A DNA stretch of 64,000 nt, taken from positions 697,095-761,094 of the forward strand of contig JBKBWZ010000002.1 in the NCBI GenBank assembly GCA_046314385.1, given 5' to 3'. This document shows, piece by piece, positions 14,414 through 55,164 of the stretch (its first letter is position 1; each line of letters begins with the position of its first letter). The DNA comes from Alphaproteobacteria bacterium (GTDB lineage Bacteria > Pseudomonadota > Alphaproteobacteria > Micavibrionales > UBA2020). Both the position numbers and the translations under genes were made by a program. The notes beneath the pieces are model-generated. The model worked only from the letters and a program-made list of their open reading frames with translations. It made no database searches and was not told the origin of the DNA.

Positions 14414-14422
14414 CGTGTGTTT

Positions 14423-14905: not shown

Positions 14906-15012
14906 GGGTGGCCTCGTCATGGGTTTGAAAAAAATGGTGTTGTTGTCAAGCGCTGCGCCGGTTCGGGTAAATCCAAACCGGCGCAACTGTCACGTCATGT
15001 TAAAAATGCAGA

Positions 15013-29435: not shown

Positions 29436-29831
29436 ATGAAAAAAAGAACAGCTCCCGCCGCAGATATCCATAAACAAGACAAACACGTGCTTGCCGCCGA
29501 TCTGCTCAAAAAACACCGCCAGAAGATCGATAAAATCGACGCCCAGCTGCTGAAGCTGCTCGGCGACCGCTTTGAAGTGGTGCGTGACGTTGCTGACGTC
29601 AAGATAAAGCATGATATTCCGGCCTTTCTTGGCGGCCGCGTCAACGAAGTGCGCAACAATGCCGTCAAGCTGGGCATTCTTTATGGAATTGATCCGGATT
29701 TCGTGCGCACGCTTTATACCATGCTGATTTACCAGTCCTGCGCCGAAGAAGAGGTGCTGAAGCACGAAGCGCAGCAGAAAAAATCCGGTATCAAAAAAAC
29801 ACCCGCTGCGCGAAAGCCCCGTAAAAAGTGA
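29436..29831 (+). CDS. chorismate mutase (AroQ class)
   Basis: RQKIDKIDAQLLKLLGDRFEVVRDVADVK is the AroQ helix-1 pattern. Small helical protein with a basic tail. The ATG at 29436 is preferred over the TTG at 29430. Confidence 0.7.
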   Translation: MKKRTAPAADIHKQDKHVLAADLLKKHRQKIDKIDAQLLKLLGDRFEVVRDVADVKIKHDIPAFLGGRVNEVRNNAVKLGILYGIDPDFVRTLYTMLIYQSCAEEEVLKHEAQQKKSGIKKTPAARKPRKK

Positions 29832-31174
29832 CCGGCACGCCCGAAAAAATCGGGGCGGTATCGGACGGGCTTGCCGCGCGGCAGGTTGCTTTTGCGGTAC
29901 TGAACGATATTTTTTTTCAGCGCCGCAGCCTTGACGAAGCCTATGTGCAGGCCGATGCCGCGCTTTCCGCGCTTGAAAGCCGCGACCGCGGTTTTGTGCG
30001 TCTGCTGGTGGCAACGGTTTTAAAGCGCGCGCCGCAGATGGACGCCGCACTGGCCGCGCTGCTGCACGAACCGCTTGAAAATCTCAAACCGCAGCAACTT
30101 ATCAATGTGCTGCGGCTTGGTATCGCGCAGATCGTTTTTTTGCAGACGCCGGCGCATGCCGCGGTCAGCACGGCGGTGGATCTTGCCGCCGCGGCGGGGA
30201 TTGAATGGCAAAAATCGCTGGTGAATGCCGTCATGCGCCGCATCGCGCAGGAAGGCATCGTGCAGCCCGATGCGCGCGAAGCCGGACGCATGAACACACC
30301 CGACTGGCTGTGGCAACAATGGGTGAATGATTACGGCGTTGAAACGGCGCTGGATATTGCAGCGGCCCATCTTGCCGATGCGCCGGTCGATTTCACGGTA
30401 AAAGAAAACCCCGAGCAATGGGCCGAGCATCTGGGCGCGGCGCTGTTGCCCTCCGGGTCGCTGCGGCTGCCGACGGCCGGTTTCGTGCCTGGGTTGACGG
30501 GTTTTGACGAGGGGGCGTGGTGGGTACAAAACGCCGCCGCCGCGCTGCCGGTCAAATTCCTTGCGGCGCATTTTGGCGGCGAGCTGCGCGGCAAAAAAAT
30601 TATCGATCTCTGCGCCGCGCCGGGCGGCAAGACCGCGCAGCTGGCGGCACTGGGGGCGGATGTGATCGCGCTCGACCGCTCCGCACCGCGACTTTTGCGC
30701 CTGCGCGAAAATATGGCGCGGTTGAAACTGGATGTCGAAACCATCGCCGCCGATGGCGCAGCATGGCAACCACAGCAACCGCTTGATGCCGTGCTGCTCG
30801 ATGCGCCTTGCAGCGCGACGGGGACAATACGCCATCAGCCCGATGTGCTGCGGCTCAAAGACATGCGCGATCAGGATAAACTCGCAGGGCTGCAGCGACG
30901 CCTGATGGTGAATGCGATGCAGATGCTCAAGCCCGGCGGGGTGATGGTTTACTGCACCTGCTCAATACAAAAAGCAGAGGGCGAAGCACAAACCGACTGG
31001 CTGCTCGCACAAAATACGGGCGCAGTATTCTCGCCCATCCGCACGGGCGAGGTTGCAGGCATAAACGCGATGCTCACCGCGCGCGGCGAGCTCCGCGCTC
31101 TGCCGCAGCACTGGCACGAACACGGCGGCATCGACGGTTTTTATGCGGCACGTTTTGTGAAAAACGCCGGCTGA
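29828..31174 (+). CDS. rsmB: 16S rRNA (cytosine-C5)-methyltransferase, RsmB/Sun type
   Basis: N-terminal NusB-like domain. DLCAAPGGKTAQL SAM motif, then DAPCSATGTIRHQPD and TCS catalytic cysteines. GTG start overlaps the preceding stop. Confidence 0.8.
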   Translation: MTGTPEKIGAVSDGLAARQVAFAVLNDIFFQRRSLDEAYVQADAALSALESRDRGFVRLLVATVLKRAPQMDAALAALLHEPLENLKPQQLINVLRLGIAQIVFLQTPAHAAVSTAVDLAAAAGIEWQKSLVNAVMRRIAQEGIVQPDAREAGRMNTPDWLWQQWVNDYGVETALDIAAAHLADAPVDFTVKENPEQWAEHLGAALLPSGSLRLPTAGFVPGLTGFDEGAWWVQNAAAALPVKFLAAHFGGELRGKKIIDLCAAPGGKTAQLAALGADVIALDRSAPRLLRLRENMARLKLDVETIAADGAAWQPQQPLDAVLLDAPCSATGTIRHQPDVLRLKDMRDQDKLAGLQRRLMVNAMQMLKPGGVMVYCTCSIQKAEGEAQTDWLLAQNTGAVFSPIRTGEVAGINAMLTARGELRALPQHWHEHGGIDGFYAARFVKNAG

Positions 31175-31252: not shown

Positions 31253-31903
31253 ATGAGTCAACGGGTTCGCATAGCTCCTTCCATCCTTTCCGCAGATTTC
31301 TCGAAGCTGGGCGCTGAAGTACAGGCCATCGACGAGGCGGGAGCGGATTACATACATCTGGATGTCATGGACGGCCATTTCGTGCCCAACATTACCTTTG
31401 GCCCCGTTGTCGTTGAATCTCTGCGCAAAGTCACCAAGAAGCCTTTTGATGTGCATCTGATGATTGCACCGGTGGATCCGTATATTGAAGGTTTCGCCAA
31501 GGCCGGCGCGGACATTATTACCTTTCATCCCGAAGCGGGTGCGCATCCGCACCGCACCATCCAGCTGATCAAATCTTATGGCAAGAAAGCGGGTATTTCG
31601 CTCAACCCGTCGACGCCGGTATCGGTGCTGGATCACCTCATCGACGACCTCGACCTTATTCTGGTCATGACGGTCAACCCCGGCTTCGGGGGACAGAAAT
31701 TTATTCCGCTGCTCGATAAAATCGCCGAGATACGCAAACGTATCGACGCGACCGGACGCGAGATCGATCTGGAAATCGACGGCGGCGTCAATGCCGAAAC
31801 CGCAAAGCAAGTGATTGCCGCAGGCGCGAATGTGCTTGTGGCGGGGACGGCCGTTTTCAAAGAAAAAGACTACGGGGAGGCGATCTCGCGGCTGCGCGGA
31901 TAA
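31253..31903 (+). CDS. rpe: ribulose-phosphate 3-epimerase
   Basis: [35 protein letters not shown] and EIDGG motifs. Confidence 0.93.
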
Positions 31904-31977
31904 GCCTTTCGGGTGTAGACGGCAAGAAATAGGGGAGTGTTCACCGAAGGGGTTCGGTGTTCATCGGGGTTTTTTTA

Positions 31978-33630
31978 ATGTTGCTGACAGAGCAGAGTCT
32001 CATCTATCGCGGAATCCGCCCGCTGCAAAAGCTGGGCGATCTTGCCAAGCTCAATGCGCTGTTGCCGCTGGCAGGGCTTGCGATGCCGCAGCGCGTGCCG
32101 GAGCGTTTGCGCGTTGTGCCGCCCGACCCGTGGGCAGGCGATGCCGCCCGCGGCCGCGACATGATGGCGGGGATTTTCCGCTTTGCCGGACAGACGTTTG
32201 AAAAAGAAGAAGTCTCCTGGCGTCCCCCCACGGCAAAAGCCGAATGGATGGCCGAGCTGCATGGTTTTGAATGGCTGCGTGATTTGCGCAGTGTCGGCGG
32301 CGACCGCGCCCGCCGCATGGCGCGCGAAATGGTCGTCTATTGGCTGCGCCACAACGAAAAGCCGCAGCCGGGTCTGCCCGGCTGGGATGCCGAAAGCACC
32401 GGTATGCGTATTGCGGCCTGGATTTCCTTTCATGATTTCTTTTGCGCCAGCGCCGATGACGATTTCCGTCATGCGTGGTTTGCCAGCCTTGTAAAGCAGG
32501 CGCGTTATCTGTCCAAGGTTTTGCCGGGCAATCTTTACGGTATCCCGCTGATGCGTGCGCTCAAGGGGCTGGCCTATAGCGGTCTTGCGCTCGATGACGG
32601 CGAAGACCGGCTGGAACAGGCTTTCCGCATGATCCTGCGCGAAATCAAGATGCAGATTTTGCCCGACGGCGGCCATGTGTCGCGCAGTCCGCAGGCGACG
32701 TTTGAATTTCTGCAATGCCTTGTCGATCTGCGCACGGCGGTGACGGCGGCGCGTCTTGATCTGCCTGCCGAATTGCAGCATGCGATTGACAAGCTTGCAC
32801 CGGCGGTCAAATTCTTCCGCCACAGCGACGGTGCTTTTTGCCAGTTCAATGGCGGGCAGGAAGGCAACCCGAATATCTGCGATGCAACGCTGATGCATTC
32901 CGGCGCGCGCGGCAAGGCGATGAAAAGCCTGCCGTATTGCGGGTATGAAAAAATCCAGCTCGGACGCGCCAGCGTGATCATGGACATCGGCCTTGGTGGC
33001 CTGCCCAAATACAGCGGCCGCGCGCACGCGGGATTGATGGCTTTTGAATACGGCTTTGGCAAAGACCGCGTCATTGTCAACTGCGGCACAACATCTGTAG
33101 ATGGCAAGTGGCGCGATTTGCTGAAATCGACCGCGGCGCATTCCACGTTGATTGTCGACAACCGCAATGCCTGTCATTTTGATGAAGCGGGGCATTTGAC
33201 CACGCGCCCCGAAATCACATCTGACCGCCGCGAAGACGACCATATGGCCGAAATCATCGCCAGCCACAGCGGCTATATGCCGCGCTATGGCCTGATCCAC
33301 CAGCGCAGCCTGCGCCTGCTGGATGCCGGTGAAACGCTCTCGGGCGAAGACAGGCTCAGCGGCAAGGCCGGCGCCCATTTCGCCGTGCGTTTCCATTTGC
33401 ATCCCTGCATTCAGGCATCGTTGATACAGGACGGATCCGAAGTCCTGCTGCGCGCGCGCAGCGGCATCGGCTGGCGTTTTTCTGCCGAAAATGCACAGTT
33501 GTCGATCGAAGACAGCGTTTATGCCGGCGAAGGCGATACGCCCCGCCGCGCGCTGCAAATCGTGCTGGGCGGCGTCAGTACGGCGCCCGAAACCTGCGTG
33601 TCCTGGCAGCTCAAGCGCGATAAAATCTAA
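31978..33630 (+). CDS. heparinase II/III family protein
   Basis: About 550 aa with the HGFEWLRDL and SHSGYMPRYGLIHQRSL blocks seen in alphaproteobacterial heparinase II/III-like proteins. Start is uncertain (GTG 31957 or ATG 31978). Confidence 0.65.
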   Translation: MLLTEQSLIYRGIRPLQKLGDLAKLNALLPLAGLAMPQRVPERLRVVPPDPWAGDAARGRDMMAGIFRFAGQTFEKEEVSWRPPTAKAEWMAELHGFEWLRDLRSVGGDRARRMAREMVVYWLRHNEKPQPGLPGWDAESTGMRIAAWISFHDFFCASADDDFRHAWFASLVKQARYLSKVLPGNLYGIPLMRALKGLAYSGLALDDGEDRLEQAFRMILREIKMQILPDGGHVSRSPQATFEFLQCLVDLRTAVTAARLDLPAELQHAIDKLAPAVKFFRHSDGAFCQFNGGQEGNPNICDATLMHSGARGKAMKSLPYCGYEKIQLGRASVIMDIGLGGLPKYSGRAHAGLMAFEYGFGKDRVIVNCGTTSVDGKWRDLLKSTAAHSTLIVDNRNACHFDEAGHLTTRPEITSDRREDDHMAEIIASHSGYMPRYGLIHQRSLRLLDAGETLSGEDRLSGKAGAHFAVRFHLHPCIQASLIQDGSEVLLRARSGIGWRFSAENAQLSIEDSVYAGEGDTPRRALQIVLGGVSTAPETCVSWQLKRDKI

Positions 33631-33699: not shown

Positions 33700-34395
33700 A
33701 TGGCTTTGAAGGAATATGTACTTGATATGTTTAACCTGCGCAAAGACCGCACGGGATTTTTCCGTGCAGAGCCTAATGCTGTGCCTGTGATTTCGCAGGC
33801 GCGCGCGATCGACGTTTTCGATACGCTCAAAAACATGGATAACATCGCCTATGCTTATACCGATGACGGTTGTTATGCGCGCACGCATCTGATGTGCCGC
33901 AGCCTTTTCGGTATGGGGCTGCTGCCGGAAAAGGCCTGGGCTTTTGAAACGGACAACCGCGAATTGATCGTAAAATTTCCGCACGGCGAACAGACATGGT
34001 GGTTTCATGTCGCGCCTGTTCTGAACGTTGAAGACGGCAAGGGCGGCCATATAAAAATGGTCTTTGACCCGTCGCTCTTCGACGGCCCCGTCACGCTGAA
34101 GGAATGGGGAGATATCATGCAGGCCGAAAAAAACCAGATTTTTATCGCCCCCTGCGGCAAGGCGCCCGGATATCACCGCGGTGATTACACGCCGTATCGC
34201 CGCACCGGATGGGCGACCGATGACGCCGCGCTCAGCGTTATGAATGAATACGTGCAGCTGGAAAAAGAACAGGAATTTATGCCGCATGTTTTTCCAAGCA
34301 TCATGCGCAAGGCCGCGAATGATGAAAAATTTCATATCCAGCCCGCAGGTGTTCAAAAGACGGGAGGGCAATCATGCCGGAATCAAAAGGTGTGA
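33700..34395 (+). CDS. protein-glutaminase-like papain-fold protein (putative Cys-His-Asp deamidase), paralog 1
   Basis: Blocks DDGCYARTHLMC, WWFHVAPV and MVFDPSLFDGPVTL resemble the Cys/His/Asp blocks of Chryseobacterium protein-glutaminase as I recall them. No signal peptide by eye. Confidence 0.6.
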   Translation: MALKEYVLDMFNLRKDRTGFFRAEPNAVPVISQARAIDVFDTLKNMDNIAYAYTDDGCYARTHLMCRSLFGMGLLPEKAWAFETDNRELIVKFPHGEQTWWFHVAPVLNVEDGKGGHIKMVFDPSLFDGPVTLKEWGDIMQAEKNQIFIAPCGKAPGYHRGDYTPYRRTGWATDDAALSVMNEYVQLEKEQEFMPHVFPSIMRKAANDEKFHIQPAGVQKTGGQSCRNQKV

Positions 34396-34583: not shown

Positions 34584-35237
34584 ATGGCCATGATAAAACG
34601 TCTGCTGTCTGTTTTTAATCCGCTCAGCGACCGGCAGGGCATTCTGCGCGCGCCGCCGGATGTGATTTCGCAGGCGCGCGCGCTGGAGGTCTTTGATACA
34701 TTACGGGCGATGCCGGATGTGGCTTTTGGCTTTCCGGCCAAGGGCTGCGAAGCGCGCGCGCATTTGATGTGCGGCAAGCTATTCGCGCTGGGGCTTGCGC
34801 CTGAAAAAGCCTGGGCGTTTGAAGTCAAGAACTGCGGCCTGACCGTTGATTTTCCGCACGGGCGCGAAGAATGGTGGTTCCATGTGGCGCCGGCGCTCAA
34901 GGTCGCGGATGGCAAAGGCGGCAGCCAGAAGATGGTTTTTGATCCGTCCCTTTTTGATGGCCCCGTAACGCTGGGCGCATGGGGCGGGGTGATGGGCGCG
35001 AGGTCAAATCTGGTTTCCGTCCTGCCCTATGGCCAGCCTTTGCCGGGGCATGGCGGTGATTACAGGCCGGGGGTCAGCACGGATTGGAAAACAACCGCTG
35101 CGGCCAAAAAAGAAATGCGCGAATGCTTTGCGCTGCAGCGTCAACTGGACTTTACGGTGCAGGTTTTCGCAAGCCCCCTGCGCGCGGCGGAGACGTCCGG
35201 TACATCCAAAAAACAGGCAATCCCGGCACCGGCCTAG
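34584..35237 (+). CDS. protein-glutaminase-like papain-fold protein, paralog 2
   Basis: Blocks AKGCEARAHLMC, WWFHVAPA and MVFDPSLFDGPVTL. 73 of 111 positions are identical to paralog 1 in a hand alignment of the central block. Confidence 0.6.
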   Translation: MAMIKRLLSVFNPLSDRQGILRAPPDVISQARALEVFDTLRAMPDVAFGFPAKGCEARAHLMCGKLFALGLAPEKAWAFEVKNCGLTVDFPHGREEWWFHVAPALKVADGKGGSQKMVFDPSLFDGPVTLGAWGGVMGARSNLVSVLPYGQPLPGHGGDYRPGVSTDWKTTAAAKKEMRECFALQRQLDFTVQVFASPLRAAETSGTSKKQAIPAPA

Positions 35238-35344: not shown

Positions 35345-36082
35345 ATGACGGAAAAAAAATCAGGCGGAAAAGCGGGCGGCGGTGCCAGAGCCGGCGGCGG
35401 CGGCAAATCCGGCGGGCCGCGCGGGCTGCAAAAAAAAGTGCAGGTCAAAACGCGCGCCAAACGCAGTATTTCTTCGGCCCGCTGGCTCGAACGTCAATTG
35501 AACGACCCCTATGTTGCAGCAGCGAAGTCCGACGGCTATCACAGCCGCGCGGCTTATAAACTGCTGCAAATGCAGGAAGATCTGGATATTTTCAAACCCG
35601 GCATGCGCGTTGTCGATCTGGGGGCGGCGCCGGGCGGCTGGACGCAGGTCGTCTGCGAGATTGTCAAACCCGGACAAAATGGCGGCAAGGTCGTGGCGAT
35701 TGACTATCTTGAAATGAAGCCGGTCGCCGAAGCCGAATTCTTTCTGATGGACTTCACCGACGACGAAGCGCCCGATGTGTTGAAAAACGCCATCGGCGGT
35801 AAAGCGCATGTGGTCATGAGTGATATGGCGCCGCCCACCATCGGCCATAAACAGACCGACCATTTACGTATTATGGGATTGGCGGATATGGCCTATGCCT
35901 TCGCGCTGGAGGTTTTACTGCCCGGCGGCACGTTTCTGGCAAAGGTCTTTCAGGGCGGGGCGGAAAAAGATTTACTTAACCAGATGAAAAAAGACTTCAC
36001 CAAGGTCAAACACATCAAACCGCCCGCCAGCCGCGTCGATTCATCGGAAATGTATGTTGTCGCCATGGGGTTCCGCGGATAA
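35345..36082 (+). CDS. rlmE: 23S rRNA (uridine2552-2'-O)-methyltransferase
   Basis: SSARWLERQLNDPYV, YHSRAAYKL, VVDLGAAPGGWTQV and DMAP motifs. Gly/Lys-rich N-terminal extension. Confidence 0.9.
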   Translation: MTEKKSGGKAGGGARAGGGGKSGGPRGLQKKVQVKTRAKRSISSARWLERQLNDPYVAAAKSDGYHSRAAYKLLQMQEDLDIFKPGMRVVDLGAAPGGWTQVVCEIVKPGQNGGKVVAIDYLEMKPVAEAEFFLMDFTDDEAPDVLKNAIGGKAHVVMSDMAPPTIGHKQTDHLRIMGLADMAYAFALEVLLPGGTFLAKVFQGGAEKDLLNQMKKDFTKVKHIKPPASRVDSSEMYVVAMGFRG

Positions 36083-36134: not shown

Positions 36135-37517
36135 ATGAAAAGAAATTCCGTCATCCGCGAGGCGCTGGGCTTCGACGATGTGCTGCTGGTTCCATCCGAA
36201 ACGCAGATCAAGCCCGATGATGTCATCACCCGCACGCGCCTGACGCGCGAGATCGAACTTTCCATCCCCATCATCGCCGCCGGTCTGGATTACGTGACCG
36301 AAAGCCAGATGGCGATTACCATCGCGCAGCTGGGCGGTATCGGCGTTATTCATGACAACATGCCGCTTGGCAAACAGGTCGAAGAAGTCCGCCGCGTAAA
36401 ACGCGCCGAAGGCAACATGGTCACAAACCCGATTACGGTTTCGCCGGAATCCAGCGTGGCCGAAGCCTTTGATCTGATGTCGACCTATCGCATTTCCGGC
36501 TTGCCGGTCATCGAACAGCCGTCACAGAAAGTAATTGGCATCATCACGCACCGCGATATCCGTTTCTTTGAAGATTACGCCAAGCCGGTGAGCGAGCTGA
36601 TGAGCACCAACGTCATCACCGTCAGCCATGCGGTGCCGCAAGACGAAGCCAAAAAACTTTTGCACCAGCACCGCATCGAAAAACTGGTTGTGGTCGATGA
36701 ACAGGGCCGCTGTGCAGGCCTTATTACCGTCAAGGATATCGAAAAACTGGCGCGCTTCCCCAATGCCGCGCGCGATATGTATGGCCGTTTGCGCGTGGGT
36801 GCGGCGGTGAGTTTGGGCAAGGATGCCCTTGACCGTGCCGGCGCCATGGCCGATGCCGGTCTGGACGTCGTCTTTGTCGATGTCGCGCATGGCCACAGCC
36901 GCGAAGCCGTGACCACCGTCAGCATGATCCGCCAGCAGCGCAGCAGCAACGTACAGATTGTCGCAGGCAATGTTGTGACGGCAGATGCCGCGCGCAGCCT
37001 GATTGACGCAGGTGCGGATGCGATCAAGGTCGGCATCGGCGCAACGGCTTGTTCCGCCACGCGCAGCCAGGCCGGTATTGGTATGCCGCAGCTGACGGCA
37101 GTGCTGGATGTGGTGGAGCAATGCGATATGCAGGGCGTGCCCGTCATCGTCGATGGCGCGATCCGCACGCCGGCGCATCTGGCCAAGGCAATTGCGGCAG
37201 GCGCGGAAAGTGCGATGATCAGCGATATGTTCGCCGGCACCGACGAAGCGCCGGGCGTGGTGATGTATCAGGACGCGCAGGCCTATAAGGTTGTGAACCC
37301 GCAGGCCAAGGCGCAGCATCGCCCGACAACGTCATCGCTGGTGCATGACCCGTTCCGTCTGGACGAAGACGCGGTGGATACGTCTGTGCCATACCGCGGT
37401 TCGGTTCAGCATATGGTTGAGCAGCTGGTCGGCGGTTTGAAAACCGCGATGGCCTATACCGGCAGCCGCGACATCACCGCGATGCGCGAAAATGTCGAGC
37501 TGATAAAGGCGAAATAA
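36135..37517 (+). CDS. guaB: IMP dehydrogenase family protein at the guaB locus; catalytic motifs are degenerate
   Basis: LGFDDVLLVPSE N-terminus, a CBS pair, and a TIM-barrel with KVGIGATACSATR in place of KVGIGPGSICTTR. Length is 460 aa. Confidence 0.7.
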   Translation: MKRNSVIREALGFDDVLLVPSETQIKPDDVITRTRLTREIELSIPIIAAGLDYVTESQMAITIAQLGGIGVIHDNMPLGKQVEEVRRVKRAEGNMVTNPITVSPESSVAEAFDLMSTYRISGLPVIEQPSQKVIGIITHRDIRFFEDYAKPVSELMSTNVITVSHAVPQDEAKKLLHQHRIEKLVVVDEQGRCAGLITVKDIEKLARFPNAARDMYGRLRVGAAVSLGKDALDRAGAMADAGLDVVFVDVAHGHSREAVTTVSMIRQQRSSNVQIVAGNVVTADAARSLIDAGADAIKVGIGATACSATRSQAGIGMPQLTAVLDVVEQCDMQGVPVIVDGAIRTPAHLAKAIAAGAESAMISDMFAGTDEAPGVVMYQDAQAYKVVNPQAKAQHRPTTSSLVHDPFRLDEDAVDTSVPYRGSVQHMVEQLVGGLKTAMAYTGSRDITAMRENVELIKAK

Positions 37518-37540: not shown

Positions 37541-38887
37541 ATGACGCCCGCCGCACGTATACAGGCGGTGATCGAGCTTCTGGCCGAGGTTGTCGAAACC
37601 CCGCGTCCGGCCGACACCGTGGCCAGCCTTTATTTCCGCGCCCGCCGCTATATCGGCTCCAGCGACCGCGGCGCGATCAACACCCGCTTTTACCGGGCGA
37701 TGCGCGAATATATCCGTCTCAGCTGGTGGGTAGAAAAATGCGGCGCGGAAACAACGCCGCGTAACCTGATTATCGCCGCGCTGATTTTTGACCGCGAACA
37801 TACCGCCGAAAGCCTACCGATGATGTTTTCGGGTGCAAGATACGCCCCTGAAGAGCTGACCGAAGCCGAATATAAACTGGCGCAGGCGCTGGAAGGCAAA
37901 AAGCTCGATGACGCCGAAATGCCGCTGCGCGAACGCTGCGAATGCCCCGACTGGGCTTTCGATGCGCTCCAGAGTGCGCTCGGGCCGCGGTTTGAAGCCG
38001 AGCTGAAAGCGATGCTTTCGCCCGCGCCGCTTGACCTGCGCGTGAATACCATCAAGGCCACGCGCGATGATGTGCTCAAACGTCTCAAGCAAGAGGGCTT
38101 CGATGCCGAAGCCGGTAAAATCTCGCCGCTGTCGATCCGCGTTTTGGGGCGCCCGCAATTGTCGCAGCATGAATTATACCTGCAGGGACATTTTGAAATT
38201 CAGGACGAAGGTTCGCAAATGGTGGCACTGGTCGCAGCAGCGCAGCCCGGTGAACAGGTGGCCGATTTCTGTGCGGGTGCAGGCGGTAAAACGCTGGCAC
38301 TGGGCGCCTCCATGGATAACAAAGGCCGCATCGTTGCCATGGATGTGCTGGGCGGCAGGCTGGAGCGTGCAAAAGAGCGTTTCCGCCGCGCCGGCCTTCA
38401 TAATATCGAAACGCGTTCGCTGACCAGCGAACGTGATAAATACGTCAAGCGCGCAGCGGGTAAATTTGACCTCGTGCTTGTCGATGCGCCGTGCAGCGGT
38501 GTGGGCACATGGCGGCGCGATCCTGATAAACGCTGGCGCCAGCTTGGCCCTGGTCTGTCGTCGCTGGTACCGCTGCAAAAAGACATCCTCGACAGCGCGC
38601 ACCGTCTGGTGCGTCCGGGTGGGCGTCTGGTCTATGCGACCTGTTCGCTGCTGCCGGAAGAAAACGAACTTCAGATCGAAACTTTCCTTGCCGCGCATCC
38701 TGATTTCAGTATCGATCCGGTATCGGCGCGCGTGAAGGTCGAAGGCGCGGGCGATTTTCTGCACATGACACCGGCGCGTCACGACACCGACGGCTTTTTT
38801 GCCGCCGTCCTGCGCCGCAAAGAGCAAGTCAGCGAGTCAAAACAAGAAGCCGCCAGCGACAAGGAAGCAGAACAGGCTGCGACATGA
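37541..38887 (+). CDS. RsmB/NOP family class I SAM-dependent RNA methyltransferase
   Basis: ADFCAGAGGKTLAL, DAPCSGVGTWRRDPD and ATCS motifs, with an N-terminal helical domain. Confidence 0.8.
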   Translation: MTPAARIQAVIELLAEVVETPRPADTVASLYFRARRYIGSSDRGAINTRFYRAMREYIRLSWWVEKCGAETTPRNLIIAALIFDREHTAESLPMMFSGARYAPEELTEAEYKLAQALEGKKLDDAEMPLRERCECPDWAFDALQSALGPRFEAELKAMLSPAPLDLRVNTIKATRDDVLKRLKQEGFDAEAGKISPLSIRVLGRPQLSQHELYLQGHFEIQDEGSQMVALVAAAQPGEQVADFCAGAGGKTLALGASMDNKGRIVAMDVLGGRLERAKERFRRAGLHNIETRSLTSERDKYVKRAAGKFDLVLVDAPCSGVGTWRRDPDKRWRQLGPGLSSLVPLQKDILDSAHRLVRPGGRLVYATCSLLPEENELQIETFLAAHPDFSIDPVSARVKVEGAGDFLHMTPARHDTDGFFAAVLRRKEQVSESKQEAASDKEAEQAAT

Positions 38888-39768
38888 AGAAAGACGACGA
38901 CAAAAGATCCCATGACAACATGACGCAGGCCGCCCATCTGGCGGGTAACCTGCCGGGGCTTTTGTTGCAGGCCGAAAAAATTGCCCATACCGTGATGCGC
39001 GGCGTGCATGGCCGCCGCCGCGTCGGGCAGGGGGAAACCTTTTGGCAATTCCGCGAATATCAGGTCGGCGATTCAAGCCGCGACATCGACTGGCGCCAGA
39101 CCGCCAAACGCGATGCCGTGTTTGTGCGCCAGCTGGAATGGGAAGCATCGCAGACTGTCTGGCTTTACCGCGATGCTTCTGAATCGATGCAATACAGGTC
39201 TTCACCCAAGCTGCCGTACAAAAAAGACTATGCCGAAGTGCTTTTGCTGGCGCTGGCCATGTTGATTCTTGATGGCGGGGAGCAGGTCAGCTTGCTCGGC
39301 ACAACGCTCGCGCCGCAGGCGCATGCCGGTGCGGCGCAGCGTCTGCATGACTATTTGCCGATCCAAAAAGAATTCGATGCGCCCGGCCGCGCCATTGCCG
39401 CGCGTTCCAACATGATTTTGCTCAGCGATTTCTATTTCCCGCTGGAGCGTGTGCAGGCGTTTTGTGCGCCGCTGGCGGAAAAAGAAGTGCGCGGTCTGAT
39501 GGTGCAAATCACCGACCCTGCCGAAGAAGCCCTGCCCTTTACGGGACGTATCAAGTTTCACGACATTGAAAATGGCAAATCCGCGCCGGTGACGGTAGAG
39601 CAGGTAGATGCCATACGCGCTGAATATGTCGAAAAATTTACGGCGCACCGCGCGGCGCTCGGTGACATGGCGCGCAGTTTTGGCTGGCGTTTGCTGACCG
39701 CGTCTACGGCCGACAAGCCCGAAGCGCTTTTGGCGCGTATCTATGATCTTTTGGCGGCGAAAGGATAG
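38884..39768 (+). CDS. DUF58 domain protein
   Basis: GETFWQFREYQVGDSSRDIDWRQTAK is the DUF58 core signature. ATGA overlap with the upstream methyltransferase gene. Confidence 0.8.
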   Translation: MKKDDDKRSHDNMTQAAHLAGNLPGLLLQAEKIAHTVMRGVHGRRRVGQGETFWQFREYQVGDSSRDIDWRQTAKRDAVFVRQLEWEASQTVWLYRDASESMQYRSSPKLPYKKDYAEVLLLALAMLILDGGEQVSLLGTTLAPQAHAGAAQRLHDYLPIQKEFDAPGRAIAARSNMILLSDFYFPLERVQAFCAPLAEKEVRGLMVQITDPAEEALPFTGRIKFHDIENGKSAPVTVEQVDAIRAEYVEKFTAHRAALGDMARSFGWRLLTASTADKPEALLARIYDLLAAKG

Positions 39769-39774
39769 GGGCGG

Positions 39775-42522
39775 ATGCTGGGCGGTTTGACTTTCCTCTT
39801 CCCGATGTTGCTGGGCGCCATGCTGTTTATTCCGGTGCTGTGGTGGCTGCTGCGCGTGATGCCGCCGCGTCCGCGCGCGATAAAATTCCCCGCGTTCTTT
39901 TTGCTGCAAGGTCTCAAGACCGATGTGCGTACGGCATCGAAAACCCCGTGGTGGCTGCTTTTGTTGCGCTCGCTGATTGTTCTTTTGTTTATTCTGGCGC
40001 TATCGGAGCCTGTCTTGCGTAAATCCGAAGGCTTGCCGGGCAAAGACGGGCCGGTACTGGTTGTCATCGACAATGGCTACAGTGCCGCCGTCAATTGGGG
40101 GGATCGCATTGCACGCCTGCGCGAATATCTGCCGCAAATCGGGCGCAGCGACCGCAGCGTGATCTTCCTGCCTACCGCCGCCGCCGCATCGGACGGCAAG
40201 CTGCGCGCGCACGGGCCGATGGGCGCGGGCGAGGCGGAAAAGTGGATTGAAACGATCAAGCCCCAATCCTGGCCGGCGGATCATGTGGCGGCCGCAGCGG
40301 CCGCAACCGAGGTTATCGCCGCGCATGATGTGTCGCATGTGCTGATGCTGGCCGATGGCACCGCACCGGGCGAGGTCAAAGACAGCCGCGCACTGCTGAC
40401 CGCCTTGACCGAAGAGTCCGGTTTGACGCTGCTGCGCGATGACCGCATCAATACGCCGCATATTCTGCGCCGTAACCCGACACATCCGTCGGAACTGTCG
40501 CTGTCGGTTGAACGCCTTGTCAAACTGTCGCGCGATGAAAAAGTGCTGATCACGGCCTATAGCGCCGATGGCAACGTGATTGACGAAACGGCCTTTACCT
40601 TTCCGGCCGGCGCGGCGAAGACGGATGTCACATGGGATATTCTGGGCGAAATCAAAAGCCGCGTCACCCGCATTGCGCTGCGCCAGATGTCGATGGCTTC
40701 GGCGGTTTATCTGACGGATTCGCAGTGGCAGCAACATACCGCAGGTGTCTTGGCCGACCCCAAGGCCAAGGAAAGCGCCAGCGTGCTGAACGAAGTCTAT
40801 TACCTGCGCCGTGCGCTGGCCGTGGCGGGCAAGCCCGTTTTGGGCAGCGTTGAAGAACTAACCGCGCAGCCGATGTCTGCGGTGATCTGGCCCGACAGCA
40901 CGGCGCTGACGGCGGTCGAGCGGGTTGAGCTGCTCAATTGGGTGCGGGCAGGCGGGTTTTTAATCCGCTTTGCGGGCCCCAATCTGGCGGGCAATCCCGA
41001 AGACCCTTTGCTGCCCGTCAGTCTGCGTTACGGCCAGCGCGCGATGCAGGGGGCGCTGACATGGGACAAGCCCGTCGGTTTGGGCGCACCGCTTGAACAG
41101 GGGCCGCTGCAAGGTTTGAACATTCCCAAAGATGTGACCATCACGCGGCAGGTGCTGGCCAGCCCGACGCCCGAAGTGTTTGAACGTACGTGGCTGACGC
41201 TGTCCGATGGCACGCCGCTGATAACCGGCGGACGGGTCGGTAACGGCTCTATCGTGCTGGTGCATACAACAGCCGGGCCGGATTGGTCGAATTTCTGTTA
41301 TTCGGGTCTGTATGTGGAGGCTTTGCAGCGGCTGGTCTCGCTCAGCGCTGGTGCGGCAGATTTCCGCGCCGAGACGATCCTCTCGCCCATGCTGCTGATG
41401 GATGGTTTTGGACGTCTGGAAACGCCTGACCCGCGCGCGCTGTCGCGGCCTGTCGACCCGCGCCAGCCCTTCACGCCATCGCCCGAAACGCCGCCCGGTA
41501 TTTACGGAGTCGAAAAACAATTTACCGTTTTCAATCTGGGCGACGCGCTGGGCGATATCAAGCCGCTGGGCGATGTGCCTTCGGCGGTTTCAGAAGACAC
41601 CTATCAGCTGGCAGGGGAGCGCAGCCTGAAGCCCGATCTTTTGCGGCTGGCGCTGCTGCTGCTGCTGGTCGATACGTTTGTCACTCTTTTCCTGCGCGGC
41701 GTGATTGCGATGCCGGCGCGGTTTATCCGCACGGCGATGGTGGCGGGGCTGCTGGTGACGATGACGGCGCCCGCAAACGCGCAAGCCGCACCGGCGGAGG
41801 CGGAGCTGATGACAGGCGTTTATCTCGCCTATGTCGAAACCGGTGATCAGGAAACGGACCGTATCAGCCACAACGGGCTGGAAGGGCTGCGCGCGGCGCT
41901 CAATCTGCGTACCAACGTCAAGGTCGCGGGCGTGCGCGGCGTGGATCCATCGCGCGATACGCTTTATTTCTACCCCTTTCTGTACTGGCCGATGACGGAA
42001 AGCCAGACGGTCTTGCCCGCCAGCGCGGCGCGGAATATCCAGACCTATCTGGCGCAGGGCGGCATGATTGTTTTCGATACGCGCGACCAGCAATTCGCCG
42101 CCGATGACGGGCGCGGCCCCGCAGGATCAACGCTCGGCCAGCGCCGCCTGCGCAAGCTGACGGAAAATATCCAGATTTCCGAATTGGCGCCTGTCGACGG
42201 AAATCACATCATCACCAAGAGCTTTTACCTGCTGAATAATTATCCCGGGCTTTACACCGGCGGCACGCTCTGGGCAGAAAAAGAACCCAGCCCCGACCAT
42301 GATGGCGTGACATCGGTTTTCATCGGCGGCAACGACTGGGCATCGGCATGGTCGGAAGATGCGGGTGACCGCGCCCGTTTTATGCGCACGGCGCGCAATG
42401 GCGCACGGCAGCGCGAAATTGCGATGCGTTTCGGCGTTAATCTGACGATGGTGGCGCTGTCGGGCAGTTATAAATCCGATCAGGTGCATGTTCCCTATAT
42501 CCTGCAAAGGATCAGCCGATGA
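39775..42522 (+). CDS. BatA-N (aerotolerance regulator N-terminal) / DUF4159 membrane protein
   Basis: N-terminus MLGGLTFLFPMLLGAMLFIPVLWWLLRVMPPRP (double-TM BatA-N pattern). The C-terminal block GGNDWASAW...YKSDQVHVPYILQRI is typical of DUF4159. Confidence 0.7.
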   Translation: MLGGLTFLFPMLLGAMLFIPVLWWLLRVMPPRPRAIKFPAFFLLQGLKTDVRTASKTPWWLLLLRSLIVLLFILALSEPVLRKSEGLPGKDGPVLVVIDNGYSAAVNWGDRIARLREYLPQIGRSDRSVIFLPTAAAASDGKLRAHGPMGAGEAEKWIETIKPQSWPADHVAAAAAATEVIAAHDVSHVLMLADGTAPGEVKDSRALLTALTEESGLTLLRDDRINTPHILRRNPTHPSELSLSVERLVKLSRDEKVLITAYSADGNVIDETAFTFPAGAAKTDVTWDILGEIKSRVTRIALRQMSMASAVYLTDSQWQQHTAGVLADPKAKESASVLNEVYYLRRALAVAGKPVLGSVEELTAQPMSAVIWPDSTALTAVERVELLNWVRAGGFLIRFAGPNLAGNPEDPLLPVSLRYGQRAMQGALTWDKPVGLGAPLEQGPLQGLNIPKDVTITRQVLASPTPEVFERTWLTLSDGTPLITGGRVGNGSIVLVHTTAGPDWSNFCYSGLYVEALQRLVSLSAGAADFRAETILSPMLLMDGFGRLETPDPRALSRPVDPRQPFTPSPETPPGIYGVEKQFTVFNLGDALGDIKPLGDVPSAVSEDTYQLAGERSLKPDLLRLALLLLLVDTFVTLFLRGVIAMPARFIRTAMVAGLLVTMTAPANAQAAPAEAELMTGVYLAYVETGDQETDRISHNGLEGLRAALNLRTNVKVAGVRGVDPSRDTLYFYPFLYWPMTESQTVLPASAARNIQTYLAQGGMIVFDTRDQQFAADDGRGPAGSTLGQRRLRKLTENIQISELAPVDGNHIITKSFYLLNNYPGLYTGGTLWAEKEPSPDHDGVTSVFIGGNDWASAWSEDAGDRARFMRTARNGARQREIAMRFGVNLTMVALSGSYKSDQVHVPYILQRISR

Positions 42523-44612
42523 ACACATCGTTTCAGTGGTTTCCGTTCCTGCCGGATGTGTATTACGGTGTGCTTGCGCTTGCGGCGCTGGCCATCATGG
42601 TTCTGGCCTTGTGGCGCCGGATGCCCGATGCGGGCTGGCGCGGCGTTTTTGCGCTTGTTCTGATGGCGCTTTTGATGAACCCGGTGCTGTCCAAGGAAGA
42701 CCGCACCGGCCTGCCCGACAAATTGCTGATCGTCGTCGACGAAAGCCCGAGCCAAAAAATAGGCGCACGCGACAAGGTGGCCGAAGAAGCCCTGCGGCAG
42801 ATACTGGCCAAGGCGGACAGTATGCCGGGTATCGAACCGATGGTGATCCGTGCGGGCAGCGATGCGCGCGGGCTGCGCGGCGATGGCACCTATCTGTTCA
42901 CGCAGCTGCGCGACAATCTGATGAGCATTCCACTGTCGCAGGTCGCAGGGACGGTGCTGATCACCGACGGGCAAGTGCATGATGTGCCGGAAACGCTCGG
43001 CGCGCTTGAAAAAATTGCGCCGGTGCATGCAGTTCTGACAGGACGCAAGGGCGAATTTGACCGCAAGGTTACAATCATCAGCGCCCCCAAATATGGCGTT
43101 CTGGATGAAACAATCCGTGTCACCCTGCGTGTCGAAGAATTTGGCCGAGACCGGCGCGAGGTTATGCCGCTGGAGGTTCTGCAGGATGGCAAACTGGTCA
43201 CCACCGTTAACGTGCTGCCGGGCGAATTGCGCGATGTCAGTTTTAAGATCAAACATCCGGGCCAGAATATTTTTGAATTCGCCGTGCCGGTGGCAGAGGG
43301 GGAGCTGACCCCGCACAACAACCGCGCCCCTGTTATTGTCAACGGTATCCGTGACCGCTTGCGCGTGCTTTTGGTGTCCGATGCGCCGCATATGGGCAAG
43401 CGCGCATGGCGCAACCTGCTGAAATCCGATCCGGCGATCGATCTGGTGCATTTTACGATTTTGCGTCCGATGACGGCGGTTGACTCGACGCCGCCGAACG
43501 AAATGTCGCTGATCGCCTTTCCGGTTGACGAGCTTTTTTCACGCCGTATCCGCGATTTTGATCTGATTATCTTTGACCGTTACCAGCAATACGGTTTTCT
43601 GCTGCCGCATTATTTCAGCAATATCGCCTCGTTCATCCAGAACGGCGGCGCTTTCCTGCTGGCATTGGGGACGCAGGACAGCGACCAGATGCTGTTCAGC
43701 AGCCCGCTGGGCAAGCTGATGCCTGTACAGCTGGGCGGCGGCGGCAAGCAGGAGGTTCTCAAAAAGACCTTCCGTCCGGCGCTCAGCGAAGTCGGCAAGG
43801 CGCATCCGATCACGGCAGATCTTGACCGTAACAAAGATGCCGATAAATGGGGGCCGTGGCATACCTCGATTGATATGACGCAGCTGCGCGGTGAAAACCT
43901 GATGCTCGGCCTTGATCGCCGCCCTCTGATGGTTATCGACAAGGTCGGTGACGGGCGTGTCGGTGTACTGGCCAGCGATAACATCTGGCTCTGGTCAAAA
44001 GGAAACGATAATACGCGCGGGCCGTATACAGAACTTTTGCGTAACTTGTCGCATTGGTTGATGAAAGAGCCGGAGCTGGAAGAAGACTATATCAAAGCCG
44101 AAGCCGATGGATACGTGATCACCATCAGCCAGCGCAACATCACAGCCGGTGTCGCCAAACCCGTACAGATGACCGCACCCGACGGCAGTAAAAAAGAAAT
44201 CAAGACCGAAAACCGTATCGATGGCGGCTGGATGGTCGCGCGCGAAACGGTGGAACAAAGCGGTATTTACAAATTCAGCAACGGCGCGCGCGAAGCCTAT
44301 GTCGTCGTAGGGGCATCGCAGAGCGTCGAATTCAACGACGTACACACGACCGAAGACGTTTTGGCGCCGATTGTCAAAAAATCCGGCGGTACGATTGTCT
44401 GGTTTCAGGACGCGCCGGATCTGGCGCTGCGGCTGCTTTCTGCCGATGCGACGGAGGGGGGCGGCGCGGGCTGGCTCGGCCTGCGGCGCAATAATGCCTA
44501 TACGGTCGATAGCGTCAGCACCGCGGCGCTGCTGCCCAATGGCTGGATGCTGCTGATTCTGCTGCTGGCGATGGCGGCGGTCTGGTGGCGCGAGGGCGGG
44601 AAAAACGCTTAA
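42519..44612 (+). CDS. membrane protein, last gene of the DUF58/BatA-type operon
   Basis: 697 aa with N-terminal TM helices and a C-terminal TM anchor (LLPNGWMLLILLLAMAAVWW). A 4-nt overlap links it to the preceding gene. No specific family recognised. Confidence 0.6.
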   Translation: MNTSFQWFPFLPDVYYGVLALAALAIMVLALWRRMPDAGWRGVFALVLMALLMNPVLSKEDRTGLPDKLLIVVDESPSQKIGARDKVAEEALRQILAKADSMPGIEPMVIRAGSDARGLRGDGTYLFTQLRDNLMSIPLSQVAGTVLITDGQVHDVPETLGALEKIAPVHAVLTGRKGEFDRKVTIISAPKYGVLDETIRVTLRVEEFGRDRREVMPLEVLQDGKLVTTVNVLPGELRDVSFKIKHPGQNIFEFAVPVAEGELTPHNNRAPVIVNGIRDRLRVLLVSDAPHMGKRAWRNLLKSDPAIDLVHFTILRPMTAVDSTPPNEMSLIAFPVDELFSRRIRDFDLIIFDRYQQYGFLLPHYFSNIASFIQNGGAFLLALGTQDSDQMLFSSPLGKLMPVQLGGGGKQEVLKKTFRPALSEVGKAHPITADLDRNKDADKWGPWHTSIDMTQLRGENLMLGLDRRPLMVIDKVGDGRVGVLASDNIWLWSKGNDNTRGPYTELLRNLSHWLMKEPELEEDYIKAEADGYVITISQRNITAGVAKPVQMTAPDGSKKEIKTENRIDGGWMVARETVEQSGIYKFSNGAREAYVVVGASQSVEFNDVHTTEDVLAPIVKKSGGTIVWFQDAPDLALRLLSADATEGGGAGWLGLRRNNAYTVDSVSTAALLPNGWMLLILLLAMAAVWWREGGKNA

Positions 44613-54322: not shown

Positions 54323-54433
54323 AAATGTAGTATACATAAGAACGGGTTAGAATATCCGCTGTTGCCTTGGGGCGCAAAGCTGGTTAGCGTCAATACGTCC
54401 AAGTCATATACATATTTTTTTCGGGAGGCCGCC

Positions 54434-55030: not shown

Positions 55031-55164
55031 GCGTTTAGGCAGTGGCCGCAGGGTACTTATTGACATAATTATTGAGGGCAATTACAATCATGGATGTGTC
55101 GGAGGGTCTGTCTTTCCGGCAATCCTCTGTTTTGTGCGCGCCGCGGCCGGAGCTTTGTGAGAAA

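Follow-up and report, generated by a model that had tools for sequence, protein, structure and literature searches.

A non-catalytic IMP dehydrogenase homologue at the guaB locus of Micavibrio-like bacteria, probably kept for nucleotide sensing

INTRODUCTION

The gene at 36135–37517 on the + strand of the window (the whole 64,000-nucleotide stretch of DNA that was analysed) begins with ATG, encodes 460 aa plus stop and is deposited as MFN7114355.1, 'IMP dehydrogenase', the name under which both NCBI and JGI annotate the proteins of its family. By this label, automated reconstructions will credit the predatory MAGs that carry the gene with de novo GMP synthesis. An earlier note on this DNA had suggested that the product is a pseudo-enzyme, or else a CBS/TIM protein repurposed for nucleotide sensing, and the literature, when searched for IMPDH pseudoenzymes or for IMPDH in Micavibrio, returned nothing relevant. 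Does the locus still encode an IMP dehydrogenase, and if catalysis has been lost, for what is the gene kept?

RESULTS

By sequence and predicted fold the window protein is an IMPDH homologue

The Pfam IMPDH model PF00478 was matched over aa 10–458 of the 460-aa protein (E = 3.5e-108) and the CBS model PF00571 was matched twice; the top PDB match was the S. pyogenes IMPDH structure 1zfj (E = 1.8e-118), and identities to canonical IMPDHs were 41–49%, with E. coli at 41% and the nearest canonical sequence (P0123) at 49%. The AF2 model (mean pLDDT 73.7) gave TM ~0.8 against bacterial IMPDH structures, and when it was queried with Foldseek the best 50 matches were all IMPDH or GMPR (TM 0.7–0.84). 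Both features expected of the IMPDH/GMPR superfamily, a full-barrel model match with an inserted CBS pair and the IMPDH fold, were found. In fold, in sequence and in its CBS pair, the window protein is unmistakably an IMPDH homologue; the IMPDH-type N-terminus, CBS pair and barrel recognised in the earlier note are thereby borne out. The N-terminal stretch of the TIM-barrel domain (aa 1–88, 36135–36398, + strand) includes a conserved linker helix, NMPLGKQVEEVRRVKR, and is followed by the Bateman module with its two CBS motifs and retained nucleotide-site residues (aa 89–205, 36399–36749, + strand).

Catalytic elements are lost throughout the family

Motifs were compared through gapped HMMER and MAFFT alignments, with 45 diverse IMPDHs as the canonical reference set and 122 aligned members of the family, which comprises ~125 clusters of proteins encoded by Micavibrio-like MAGs; the homologues that the searches found included no member with a name or in culture. 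In the degenerate former Cys loop (aa 301–312, IGATACSATRSQ, 37035–37070, + strand), GIGPGSICTTR has become GIGATACSATR, which aligns E. coli (Ec) C305 with S307 and places a Cys at 306. The catalytic column holds Cys in all 45 canonical sequences and in none of the 122 family members, 74 of which are without any Cys in the loop and 48 of which have some loop Cys. The claimed replacement of the catalytic Cys by Ser with a Cys one residue earlier holds for the window protein, but that upstream Cys is kept in only 26 of 122 members.

The IMP site has been altered as well. In the gapped alignments DGAIRTPAH (aa 340–348, 37152–37178, + strand) stands in place of DGGIRFSGD, as an ungapped comparison had already indicated, with partial loss of the IMP ribose/phosphate contacts (Ec numbering: G340 to A, S344 to P, G345 to A). 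Of the contacts at Ec S303, D338-G339-G340, S344-G345, G361-S362 and Y385, the window protein keeps only D340 and G341; S303 is replaced by A, G340 by A, S344/G345 by P/A, G361/S362 by S/D and Y385 by V, and across the family these columns are variable or replaced. The substitution of S363-D364 (37221–37226, + strand) for the phosphate-binding Ec G361-S362 was absent from the earlier list of changes.

In IMPDH the Arg-Tyr dyad of the flap activates water and the MGS segment contacts the purine, and the C-terminal E-S-H-x-H-D segment forms part of the K+ site and of the neighbouring active site. The flap of the window protein is remodelled (aa 384–424, 37284–37406, + strand): a family-specific conserved motif, YKVVNPQAKAQHRP...DPFRLDEDAVDTSVPYRGSV, stands in place of YRGMGS, the Arg-Tyr dyad and EGxEG. 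Y385-R-G-M-G-S390 reads V-N-P-Q-A-K, R401-Y402 (Ec) is lost (the family columns are V or gaps, and any flap RY dipeptide occurs in 1 of 122 members), and E418-G419 (Ec) is replaced by D-T-S, in keeping with the statement that the EGIEGRV segment has no counterpart. YRGMGS and DRYFQ are indeed gone as had been noted, but their ungapped pairing with YKVVNP and DPFRL was off by a few residues. By alignment the C-terminus is shortened (...ELIKAK, then stop; 37497–37517, + strand), and the ESHVHD...PNY tail of ~27 aa with the ESHxHD/K+ site, where some 25 aa had been reported missing, is 100% gap throughout the family; in canonical IMPDHs the tail residues E469 and H473 are conserved at 98% and 93%. 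Because both the flap and the Cys loop have pLDDT <50 in the AF2 monomer, the docking place of the new flap motif is unreadable from the model.

Since the affected columns are 87–100% invariant among the 45 diverse canonical IMPDHs, these changes lie far beyond chance. The IMP dehydrogenase equivalog model TIGR01302 (IMP_dehydrog) gave 463.5 bits, short of the 481.5 set as its curated cutoff; the GMP reductase models also stayed below their cutoffs (NF052358, 261.8 versus 675; NF003470, 142.9 versus 397; TIGR01305, 137.5 versus 492), as did TIGR01303 (246.2 versus 562.75) and TIGR01304 (GuaB3, 100.9 versus 342.1). A frameshift or assembly artefact was rejected, because three-frame translation around each altered motif gave stops or unrelated sequence and restored none of them in another reading frame, and because the changes are common to >120 independent sequences.

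Read from these alignments, the nucleophilic Cys, the adjacent Thr residues, four IMP-phosphate contacts, the MGS segment, the Arg-Tyr base and the K+-site tail are gone family-wide; gaps, which might have brought the Cys, Arg-Tyr and phosphate-binding residues back into register, left them absent. Almost certainly, then, IMP oxidation is no longer possible for the window protein. A surviving IMP dehydrogenase (or GMP reductase) with a shifted nucleophile, e.g. C306, which stands one residue before the canonical position, is very improbable: some loop Cys in 48 of 122 members and the public annotation speak for it, but the upstream Cys is confined to 26 members, the loop is Cys-free in 74, the Thr residues, Arg-Tyr dyad, phosphate contacts, MGS purine contacts and K+-site tail are missing with it, and the TIGR01302 score is below and the GMPR scores far below the cutoffs.

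The gene is under purifying selection and its constraint pattern is inverted

The ~125 clusters consist of intact ORFs of 453–463 aa, span 60–98% identity and have one architecture in common. dN/dS was 0.019–0.041 for unsaturated and 0.12–0.15 for divergent pairs, by which a pseudogene was rejected, and 0.2–0.6 in the Cys loop, the fastest-evolving segment of the family. Expressed as −ln(mean pairwise identity), divergence in canonical IMPDHs was 0.29 for the Cys loop, 0.81 for the catalytic core and 1.24 for the CBS pair, versus 0.88, 0.34 and 0.30, respectively, in the pseudo-IMPDH family; the constraint pattern is inverted relative to true IMPDHs. A decaying, functionless guaB relic in a predator that salvages prey guanine nucleotides would fit catalytic loops with relaxed or absent constraint, a lineage related to obligate predators and a guaA missing from the ancestral neighbourhood, but it is left with next to no probability by ORFs that stay intact and constant in length in ~125 clusters of 60–98% identity, by a Bateman module more conserved than in true IMPDHs and by the gain of a new conserved motif, and the selection analysis (dN/dS 0.02–0.15) effectively refutes it.

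ATP1/GDP2-binding roles of the Bateman-site residues have been assigned from PaIMPDH and EcIMPDH structures and mutants (PMC9462843). The family conserves D141 (100%) and D201 (99%), which correspond to Ec D138 and D200 (one Asp per CBS motif), together with R140 (100%; Ec R137), E182 (99%; E181), K183 (100%; K182), K200 (89%; K199) and K204 (91%; K203). The site residues expected of a nucleotide-binding Bateman module of bacterial IMPDH are present by this measure, and the module of the window protein appears to retain both canonical nucleotide sites, at which ATP and GTP would be bound. In two members that nest inside the family (100/100 bootstraps), P0122 (421 aa) and P0124 (408 aa), the Cys loop and the flap are deleted altogether, and HGHS and GN are gone too; their locus, rlmE-X-rsmF-DUF58-BatA, is unchanged, and D141, D201, R140 and K183 are present in them also. 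The family fits an operational definition of a pseudoenzyme, by which an enzyme homologue shows clade-wide loss of essential catalytic residues and is kept under purifying selection. The catalytic column without Cys in all 122 members, the purifying selection, the near-invariant Bateman residues and the nested loop deletions uphold the earlier proposal of a pseudo-enzyme or repurposed nucleotide sensor.

The flap motif is conserved about like the barrel, with K385, D405, D415, Y420 and G422 invariant and Q394, an H395-like residue and R396 highly conserved, and in the 460-aa forms D249, H252, H254, G278, N279, R310, G314 and G316 of the former NAD/IMP pocket are kept at 98–100%. With these pocket residues kept, and with many side chains in the flap motif that might act in catalysis, the barrel could still bind a ligand or carry out some chemistry. 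Barrel and remodelled flap might thus form a different active site that handles a nucleotide-like substrate without a Cys nucleophile, a reading that the barrel-like conservation of the flap and the retained D249, H252, H254, N279 and R310 near the old pocket favour; it is quite unlikely, given that the phosphate cradle is dismantled (Ec S303, S344/G345, G361/S362, Y385), that the loop forming one pocket wall is hypervariable, that the gene stays in synteny in nested sublineages from which loop, flap, HGHS and GN have all gone, and that the family libraries suggest no other activity.

The gene occupies the position of guaB

An rlmE/FtsJ-type rRNA methyltransferase gene (35345–36082, + strand) lies 52 bp upstream of the pseudo-IMPDH gene and an RsmF/B-family rRNA methyltransferase gene (37541–38887, + strand) 23 bp downstream, both conserved neighbours; the RsmF/B-family protein has a ferredoxin-like N domain and no NusB domain. 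A DUF58 gene (38884–39768) and a BatA/DUF4159 gene (39775–42522) follow on the + strand, overlapping or abutting over 38884–42522, and probably share an operon with the co-directional upstream genes. The order rlmE, pseudo-IMPDH gene, rsmF/B-like, DUF58, BatA was fixed in 30 related loci. A promoter and terminator scan gave counts at or below shuffle expectation, and the sole Rfam match in the window was a tRNA at 3767–3837. The nearest canonical IMPDH is encoded in a relative in the order guaB-(MAPEG)-rsmF/B-like-...-guaA, so rsmF/B adjoins that guaB too. This supports the pseudo-IMPDH gene as the positional orthologue of guaB and agrees with the earlier expectation of a guaB between rlmE and an RsmB-like gene. 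The rsmF/B adjacency being ancestral, the operon context speaks only weakly for an output related to the ribosome.

With E. coli GuaA and GuaB as tblastn queries, neither GuaA nor a second IMPDH homologue was found in the 64-kb window or in the 30 related loci with 10 kb on either side, each locus having one IMPDH homologue. In an incomplete copy of the Micavibrio aeruginosavorus ARL-13 gene table (PMC3189940, S4), which is also without GMV_2430 and guanylate kinase, no 'IMP dehydrogenase' or 'GMP synthase' rows appear, an absence that carries no weight given the gaps in the table; the rpe-heparinase locus of ARL-13 also continues differently. Another reading is that the protein is a non-catalytic regulatory subunit, which would hetero-oligomerise with an active enzyme, an IMPDH or GMP reductase whose gene lies elsewhere in the genome, and tune that enzyme. 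Many pseudoenzyme paralogues act so, pseudoenzyme partners are known in nucleotide pathways, such as the PRPS-associated proteins (PMC13252144), and the conserved parts here are the Bateman module and the regions of the tetramer/octamer scaffold; regulation of bacterial IMPDH runs via Bateman-Bateman contacts between tetramers (PMC9462843). We nevertheless regard a regulatory subunit as rather unlikely, the gene being a guaB positional orthologue and not an extra paralogue, and neither a second IMPDH homologue nor guaA lying within the regions searched.

DISCUSSION

We favour, at a probability of roughly 60%, that the pseudo-IMPDH is kept for a role that does not depend on catalysis and has the sensing of adenine/guanine nucleotides at its centre. 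An alphaproteobacterial guaB would have given rise in situ to a pseudo-enzyme that consists of a TIM barrel with an inserted Bateman module, and selection would maintain the module with both nucleotide sites, the linker helix and the barrel core as a presumed oligomer scaffold, and, in most lineages, the new acidic/basic flap motif. Most likely the protein would still assemble like IMPDH and bind ATP and GTP/GDP at its Bateman sites, and these ligands could control a conformational switch of the kind described for bacterial IMPDHs, to be read out through interaction with another component and not through the protein's own active site. It would then act in trans as a sensor of purine nucleotides or energy charge, whose output may be tied to the apparently co-transcribed rRNA-methyltransferase, DUF58 and BatA genes. 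A bolder version, which we offer tentatively and hold to be doubtful as a whole, is a separation-of-function IMPDH: the guaB orthologue of uncultured Micavibrio-like predators, with all catalysis gone, would live on solely as an IMPDH scaffold for a Bateman sensor of ATP/GTP that is transcribed together with two rRNA methyltransferases and couples (prey-derived) purine supply to ribosome maturation or growth control, and the lineage would be a prey-dependent guanine-nucleotide auxotroph.

A role in physiology for the Bateman domain, beyond regulation of the catalytic domain of the same protein, has been under debate since the deletion work in E. coli, from which Pimkin et al. in 2009 reportedly concluded that the role is independent of catalysis. 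Deletion of the domain from E. coli IMPDH perturbs ATP/GTP pools in vivo (review PMC10912719). In this 'moonlighting' (Pimkin and Markham in 2008 and Pimkin et al. in 2009) the pool-balance role lies in the Bateman module, the part kept in the window protein; the E. coli protein is also an active enzyme, whereas in the window protein only the non-catalytic part is apparently under selection. Removal of catalysis, and in some branches of the loops too, along with tightened constraint on the Bateman module would be direct comparative evidence for a separate role, and the family offers a clean reagent for finding the partner of that role. If the separation-of-function reading is true, a long-debated catalysis-independent IMPDH function has been isolated and made tractable. 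De novo GMP synthesis is almost certainly not provided by this gene, for which the label 'IMP dehydrogenase' is misleading, and dependence on prey for guanine nucleotides would help explain the obligate predatory lifestyle.

Canonical GuaB (EC 1.1.1.205; E. coli b2508, P. aeruginosa 4DQW/7PJI, S. pyogenes 1ZFJ) resembles the window protein in fold, domain order, Bateman-site residues and genomic position beside rsmF/B, but has the catalytic Cys, Thr-Thr, phosphate cradle, YRGMGS, Arg-Tyr, EGxEG and ESHxHD, all of which the window protein is without; in the pseudo-IMPDH family a new motif replaces the flap and the constraint is inverted. GuaB1 (the CBS-containing GMP reductase) and GuaB3 of Actinobacteria and Cyanobacteria share its superfamily and the annotation 'IMP dehydrogenase-related'. 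GuaB1 and GMPR retain the catalytic Cys and GuaB3 is without the CBS pair, whereas the window protein has the CBS pair and no Cys at the column. In CBS-pair sensors (AcuB, CorC/HlyC, MgtE, HhpR) a Bateman module with conserved ribose-binding Asp residues senses adenine/guanine nucleotides (for AcuB see PMC13121692). Unlike theirs, the Bateman module of the window protein, for which NCBIfam CBS matches were weak, sits in an inert IMPDH barrel that presumably gives it tetramer/octamer geometry.

The PRPS-associated proteins (PMC13252144) are, as the window protein is, homologues of a core enzyme that have lost catalytic residues and are kept under selection, presumably in a regulatory or scaffold role; they derive from a different parent enzyme, and the window pseudoenzyme stands at the orthologous locus itself, not beside it as an additional paralogue. 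For pseudoenzyme evolution this would be a case of an essential housekeeping orthologue, not a spare paralogue, converted in situ, and its stages are still visible, from substitution of the catalytic residues through the new flap motif to deletion of the loops.

The window protein is an IMPDH homologue lacking the catalytic motifs

The gene lying between rlmE and the RsmF/B-family methyltransferase gene is, as the earlier note had placed it, an ORF of 460 aa at 36135..37517 (+) with an ATG start. Judged by sequence its product is beyond doubt an IMPDH homologue: Pfam IMPDH was matched over residues 10-458 (E = 3.5e-108) together with two CBS domains, and the best solved-structure match was S. 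pyogenes IMPDH 1zfj (E = 1.8e-118). An AlphaFold2 model derived from an alignment of 52 family sequences was superposed on bacterial IMPDH structures with a TM of ~0.8. The protein scored 463.5 bits against the IMP dehydrogenase equivalog TIGR01302, slightly below the cutoff of 481.5, and fell far under each cutoff of the curated GMP-reductase, GuaB1 and GuaB3 models. Its database entry, MFN7114355.1, is titled 'MAG: IMP dehydrogenase [Alphaproteobacteria bacterium]'.

Losses of catalytic motifs had been claimed from an ungapped comparison with E. coli motifs. All were upheld in gapped alignments by HMMER (against PDB sequences) and MAFFT (against a diverse set of 44 canonical IMPDHs and E. 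coli GuaB), although two of the proposed correspondences proved to be offset by a few residues, which leaves the conclusion unaffected. With E. coli numbering, the position of the catalytic C305 is taken by S307 of the window protein, T306 is replaced by Ala, and the Cys-loop residues G302 and S303 by Thr and Ala; T307 is retained as T309 but is not conserved across the family. D338-G339-G340 reads D-G-A, S344-G345 P-A, Y385-R-G-M-G-S390 V-N-P-Q-A-K and E418-G419 D-T, the R401-Y402 dyad is lost, and the C-terminal ESHVHD...PNY segment is entirely absent. The phosphate-binding G361-S362, not listed earlier, has become S-D. Compensated frameshifts and sequencing errors were rejected as the cause, since translation of the two other frames around each altered motif gave stops or unrelated sequence.

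A closed family shares the losses

Searching ~5.8 billion proteins with the window protein yielded 120 top matches of 453-463 aa and 64-95% identity, and a second search from P0121, the most divergent member, returned the same set and only four new clusters; the family is thus a closed set comprising some 125 clusters. In a library clustered at 50% identity it was one representative at 626 bits, with the next, after a gap, at ~430 bits. Every member is from a MAG or a metagenome, the named ones being labelled Micavibrio sp., Alphaproteobacteria, Rhodospirillaceae or, mistakenly, Bdellovibrionales, and no cultured species was found in either search.

Every family member has lost the nucleophile, the IMP-positioning residues, the base responsible for hydrolysing the covalent intermediate and the site for the monovalent cation, so the window protein very probably does not catalyse the IMPDH reaction. 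The earlier reading of a pseudo-enzyme rather than an active IMP dehydrogenase holds in that the gapped alignments restored neither the Cys, the Arg-Tyr dyad nor the phosphate-binding residues. The catalytic column carries Cys in 0/122 members (Ala in 63, Ser in 50). Residual IMPDH activity by a shifted Cys is hardly credible: the Cys noted one residue before that column is present in the window protein, but in only 26/122 members, and the loop of 74/122 is devoid of Cys.

Six IMPDH-like representatives outside the family (P0125, P0129, P0192, P0199, P0187 and P0167) are likewise without the catalytic Cys and further motifs. P0192 is from Caballeronia sp. LZ043 (WP_310009506.1), and at least one of these Cys-less representatives is labelled 'IMP dehydrogenase' in the genome of a free-living Burkholderiaceae. 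It seems that IMPDH homologues without the Cys have evolved more than once.

Purifying selection and inverted constraint

By the Nei-Gojobori method on coding sequences of the related loci, dN/dS was 0.027 for the window against L001 (dS 0.43), 0.019 for L002 against L003, 0.041 for L013 against L014, and 0.12-0.15 for more divergent pairs; the former Cys loop was the sole segment with raised values (0.2-0.6). Such low ratios indicate strong purifying selection and hence a functional gene, and a decaying relic is effectively excluded.

Relative rates per region, taken as -ln(mean pairwise identity), were compared between 122 family members and 45 canonical IMPDHs. The Cys loop is the slowest region of the canonical enzymes (0.29) and the fastest of the family (0.88), the Bateman module is the fastest of the canonical enzymes (1.24) and reaches 0.30 in the family, and the catalytic core gave 0.81 and 0.34, respectively. 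Within the family the Bateman module is therefore constrained at least as strongly as the barrel. The flap shows more than mere decay: it carries a new motif specific to the family, AYKVVNPxAKxQHRP...DPYRLDEDPVDTSVPYRGSV, with K385, D405, D415, Y420 and G422 invariant and many neighbours at least 90% conserved.

Shorter forms have lost the loops

Three homologues score slightly under the family: P0122 (421 aa, 56% identity; related locus L039, 1871-3136), P0124 (408 aa; L041, 8001-9227) and P0131 (433 aa; L042, 167-1468). The Cys loop is deleted in P0122 and P0131 and replaced by unrelated residues in P0124; the flap is wholly or largely deleted in the three, only partly so in P0131, and P0124 also misses the 13 residues directly before it. 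The dinucleotide-site motifs HGHS and GN are missing from P0122 and P0124 as well. What remains in each of the three is the linker helix, a Bateman module still carrying the site residues, and the barrel core. P0122 and P0124 occupy the same rlmE-X-rsmF-DUF58-BatA locus; the context of P0131 differs, adjoining lnt and a CorC-type CBS gene.

In a bootstrapped NJ tree from columns common to nearly all sequences (<=5% gaps), the family together with P0122 and P0124 was monophyletic in 100/100 replicates and with P0131 added in 98/100, while the 460-aa forms alone were so in only 4/100. Because the short forms nest inside the family, the loop and flap deletions are secondary events, and in some branches the new flap motif is dispensable. 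It is these nested forms that most strongly place the selected function outside the old active site. New enzymatic chemistry in barrel and flap appears improbable: D249, H252, H254, N279 and R310 are still conserved in the 460-aa forms, but the phosphate cradle is dismantled, the Cys loop is hypervariable and sublineages have the loops deleted.

The gene occupies the position of guaB

The order rpe, heparinase II/III-like, (variable small ORFs), rlmE/FtsJ, IMPDH-like gene, RsmF/B-family methyltransferase, DUF58, BatA/DUF4159 was found in 30/30 related loci. In the window, gaps of 52 bp and 23 bp surround the IMPDH-like gene and are followed by overlapping or abutting genes, a spacing consistent with one rlmE-IMPDH-like-RsmF/B-DUF58-BatA operon. 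Counts of predicted promoters and terminators did not exceed those expected from shuffled sequence and do not bear on this reading. The nearest canonical IMPDH, P0123 (49% identity, 497 aa, every motif intact), lies in the arrangement guaB-(MAPEG)-RsmF/B-like-...-guaA; this shared RsmF/B-like neighbour bears out the expectation of guaB at this locus and makes the window gene its positional orthologue. The presence of two rRNA methyltransferase genes in the operon may point to ribosome maturation, a link on which we place little weight since the rsmF/B adjacency predates the loss of catalysis.

A tblastn search with E. coli GuaA and GuaB, covering the 64-kb window and 10 kb to each side in the 30 loci, found neither a GuaA homologue nor a second IMPDH homologue, and the rest of the window holds ordinary housekeeping genes and no purine genes. 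That the protein serves as regulatory subunit to an active IMPDH or GMPR whose gene lies elsewhere in the genome is an unlikely reading, though a less remote one than new chemistry.

A proposed nucleotide-sensing scaffold

Two canonical nucleotide sites of proteobacterial IMPDH were defined by Fernandez-Justel et al. (PMC9462843): site 1 for ATP (PaIMPDH R136, D137, T153, E180, K181) and site 2 for GTP/GDP (K181, R198, D199), with E. coli K203 contacting GTP and D138N and D200N abolishing allosteric control in E. coli. The window protein has the equivalents R140, D141 and K183 (each 100% conserved in the family), E182 (99%), K200 (89%), D201 (99%) and K204 (91%); the T153 equivalent is S157, which is Thr in 67% of the family. 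The Bateman module thus looks competent for nucleotides.

From the conserved parts we favour, at a probability of about 0.5-0.6, a nucleotide-sensing IMPDH scaffold acting on another component. The protein would still assemble as an IMPDH tetramer/octamer, its Bateman sites would bind adenine and guanine nucleotides, and the conformational switch that nucleotides control in bacterial IMPDHs (PMC9462843; PMC9375230) would be read out by that component instead of its own catalytic site. When the Bateman domain is deleted from E. coli IMPDH, ATP/GTP pools are disturbed in vivo (review PMC10912719), a precedent for such a role. The primary paper on the E. coli deletion reportedly concluded that the Bateman-domain role does not depend on catalysis. 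The fold match PDB 9a6q, an integrative model of IMPDH from B. subtilis in complex with CodY, offers an example of a bacterial IMPDH in contact with a global regulator that senses GTP.

The searchable literature yielded no account of an IMPDH orthologue that is catalytically dead, whether from Micavibrio or from other organisms; pseudoenzymes and IMPDH moonlighting are known concepts, so what is new is the dead orthologue, not a category. It corrects a systematic mis-annotation that bears on metabolic inference for predatory MAGs, and as a natural separation-of-function form it offers a handle on the trans-acting role of the Bateman domain. The literature on predator nucleotide synthesis is contradictory: complete synthesis was credited to M. 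aeruginosavorus (Wang et al. 2011), whereas a later preprint holds epibiotic predators unable to make inosine. M. aeruginosavorus is absent among the family members found and so may well have a canonical IMPDH.

Other features of the window

The rpe gene and the heparinase II/III-like gene (31253-33630), upstream in all related loci, are also paired in M. aeruginosavorus ARL-13 (GMV_337/338), where the next genes are an Ap4A hydrolase gene and radA in place of rlmE and its IMPDH-like neighbour. In the window, tandem Gln_deamidase_2 (Pfam, protein-glutaminase-like) paralogues are inserted ahead of rlmE, after the heparinase-like gene, at 33700-34395 (+; E = 2.5e-25) and 34584-35237 (+; E = 2.2e-21); with one copy or none in related loci, they are a variable element of a gene order that is otherwise fixed, and may encode an effector or toxin of a predator. 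The window has a pair of RsmB/F-family methyltransferase genes less than 8 kb apart: 29828-31174 (+) has a NusB domain (true RsmB/Sun type), and 37541-38887 (+), adjoining the IMPDH homologue, lacks NusB and has instead the RsmF-B ferredoxin-like N domain. The longest ORF within 13163-15256, 13388-15256 (+), was rejected as an antisense artefact, the real genes being TyrS (13163-14413, -) and a 187-aa ORF without family match (14423-14986, -). Sizeable ORFs without a Pfam match are 50439-51572, 54362-55030, 55072-56244 and 42519-44612, the last (697 aa) being conserved in nearly all related loci, downstream of BatA/DUF4159.
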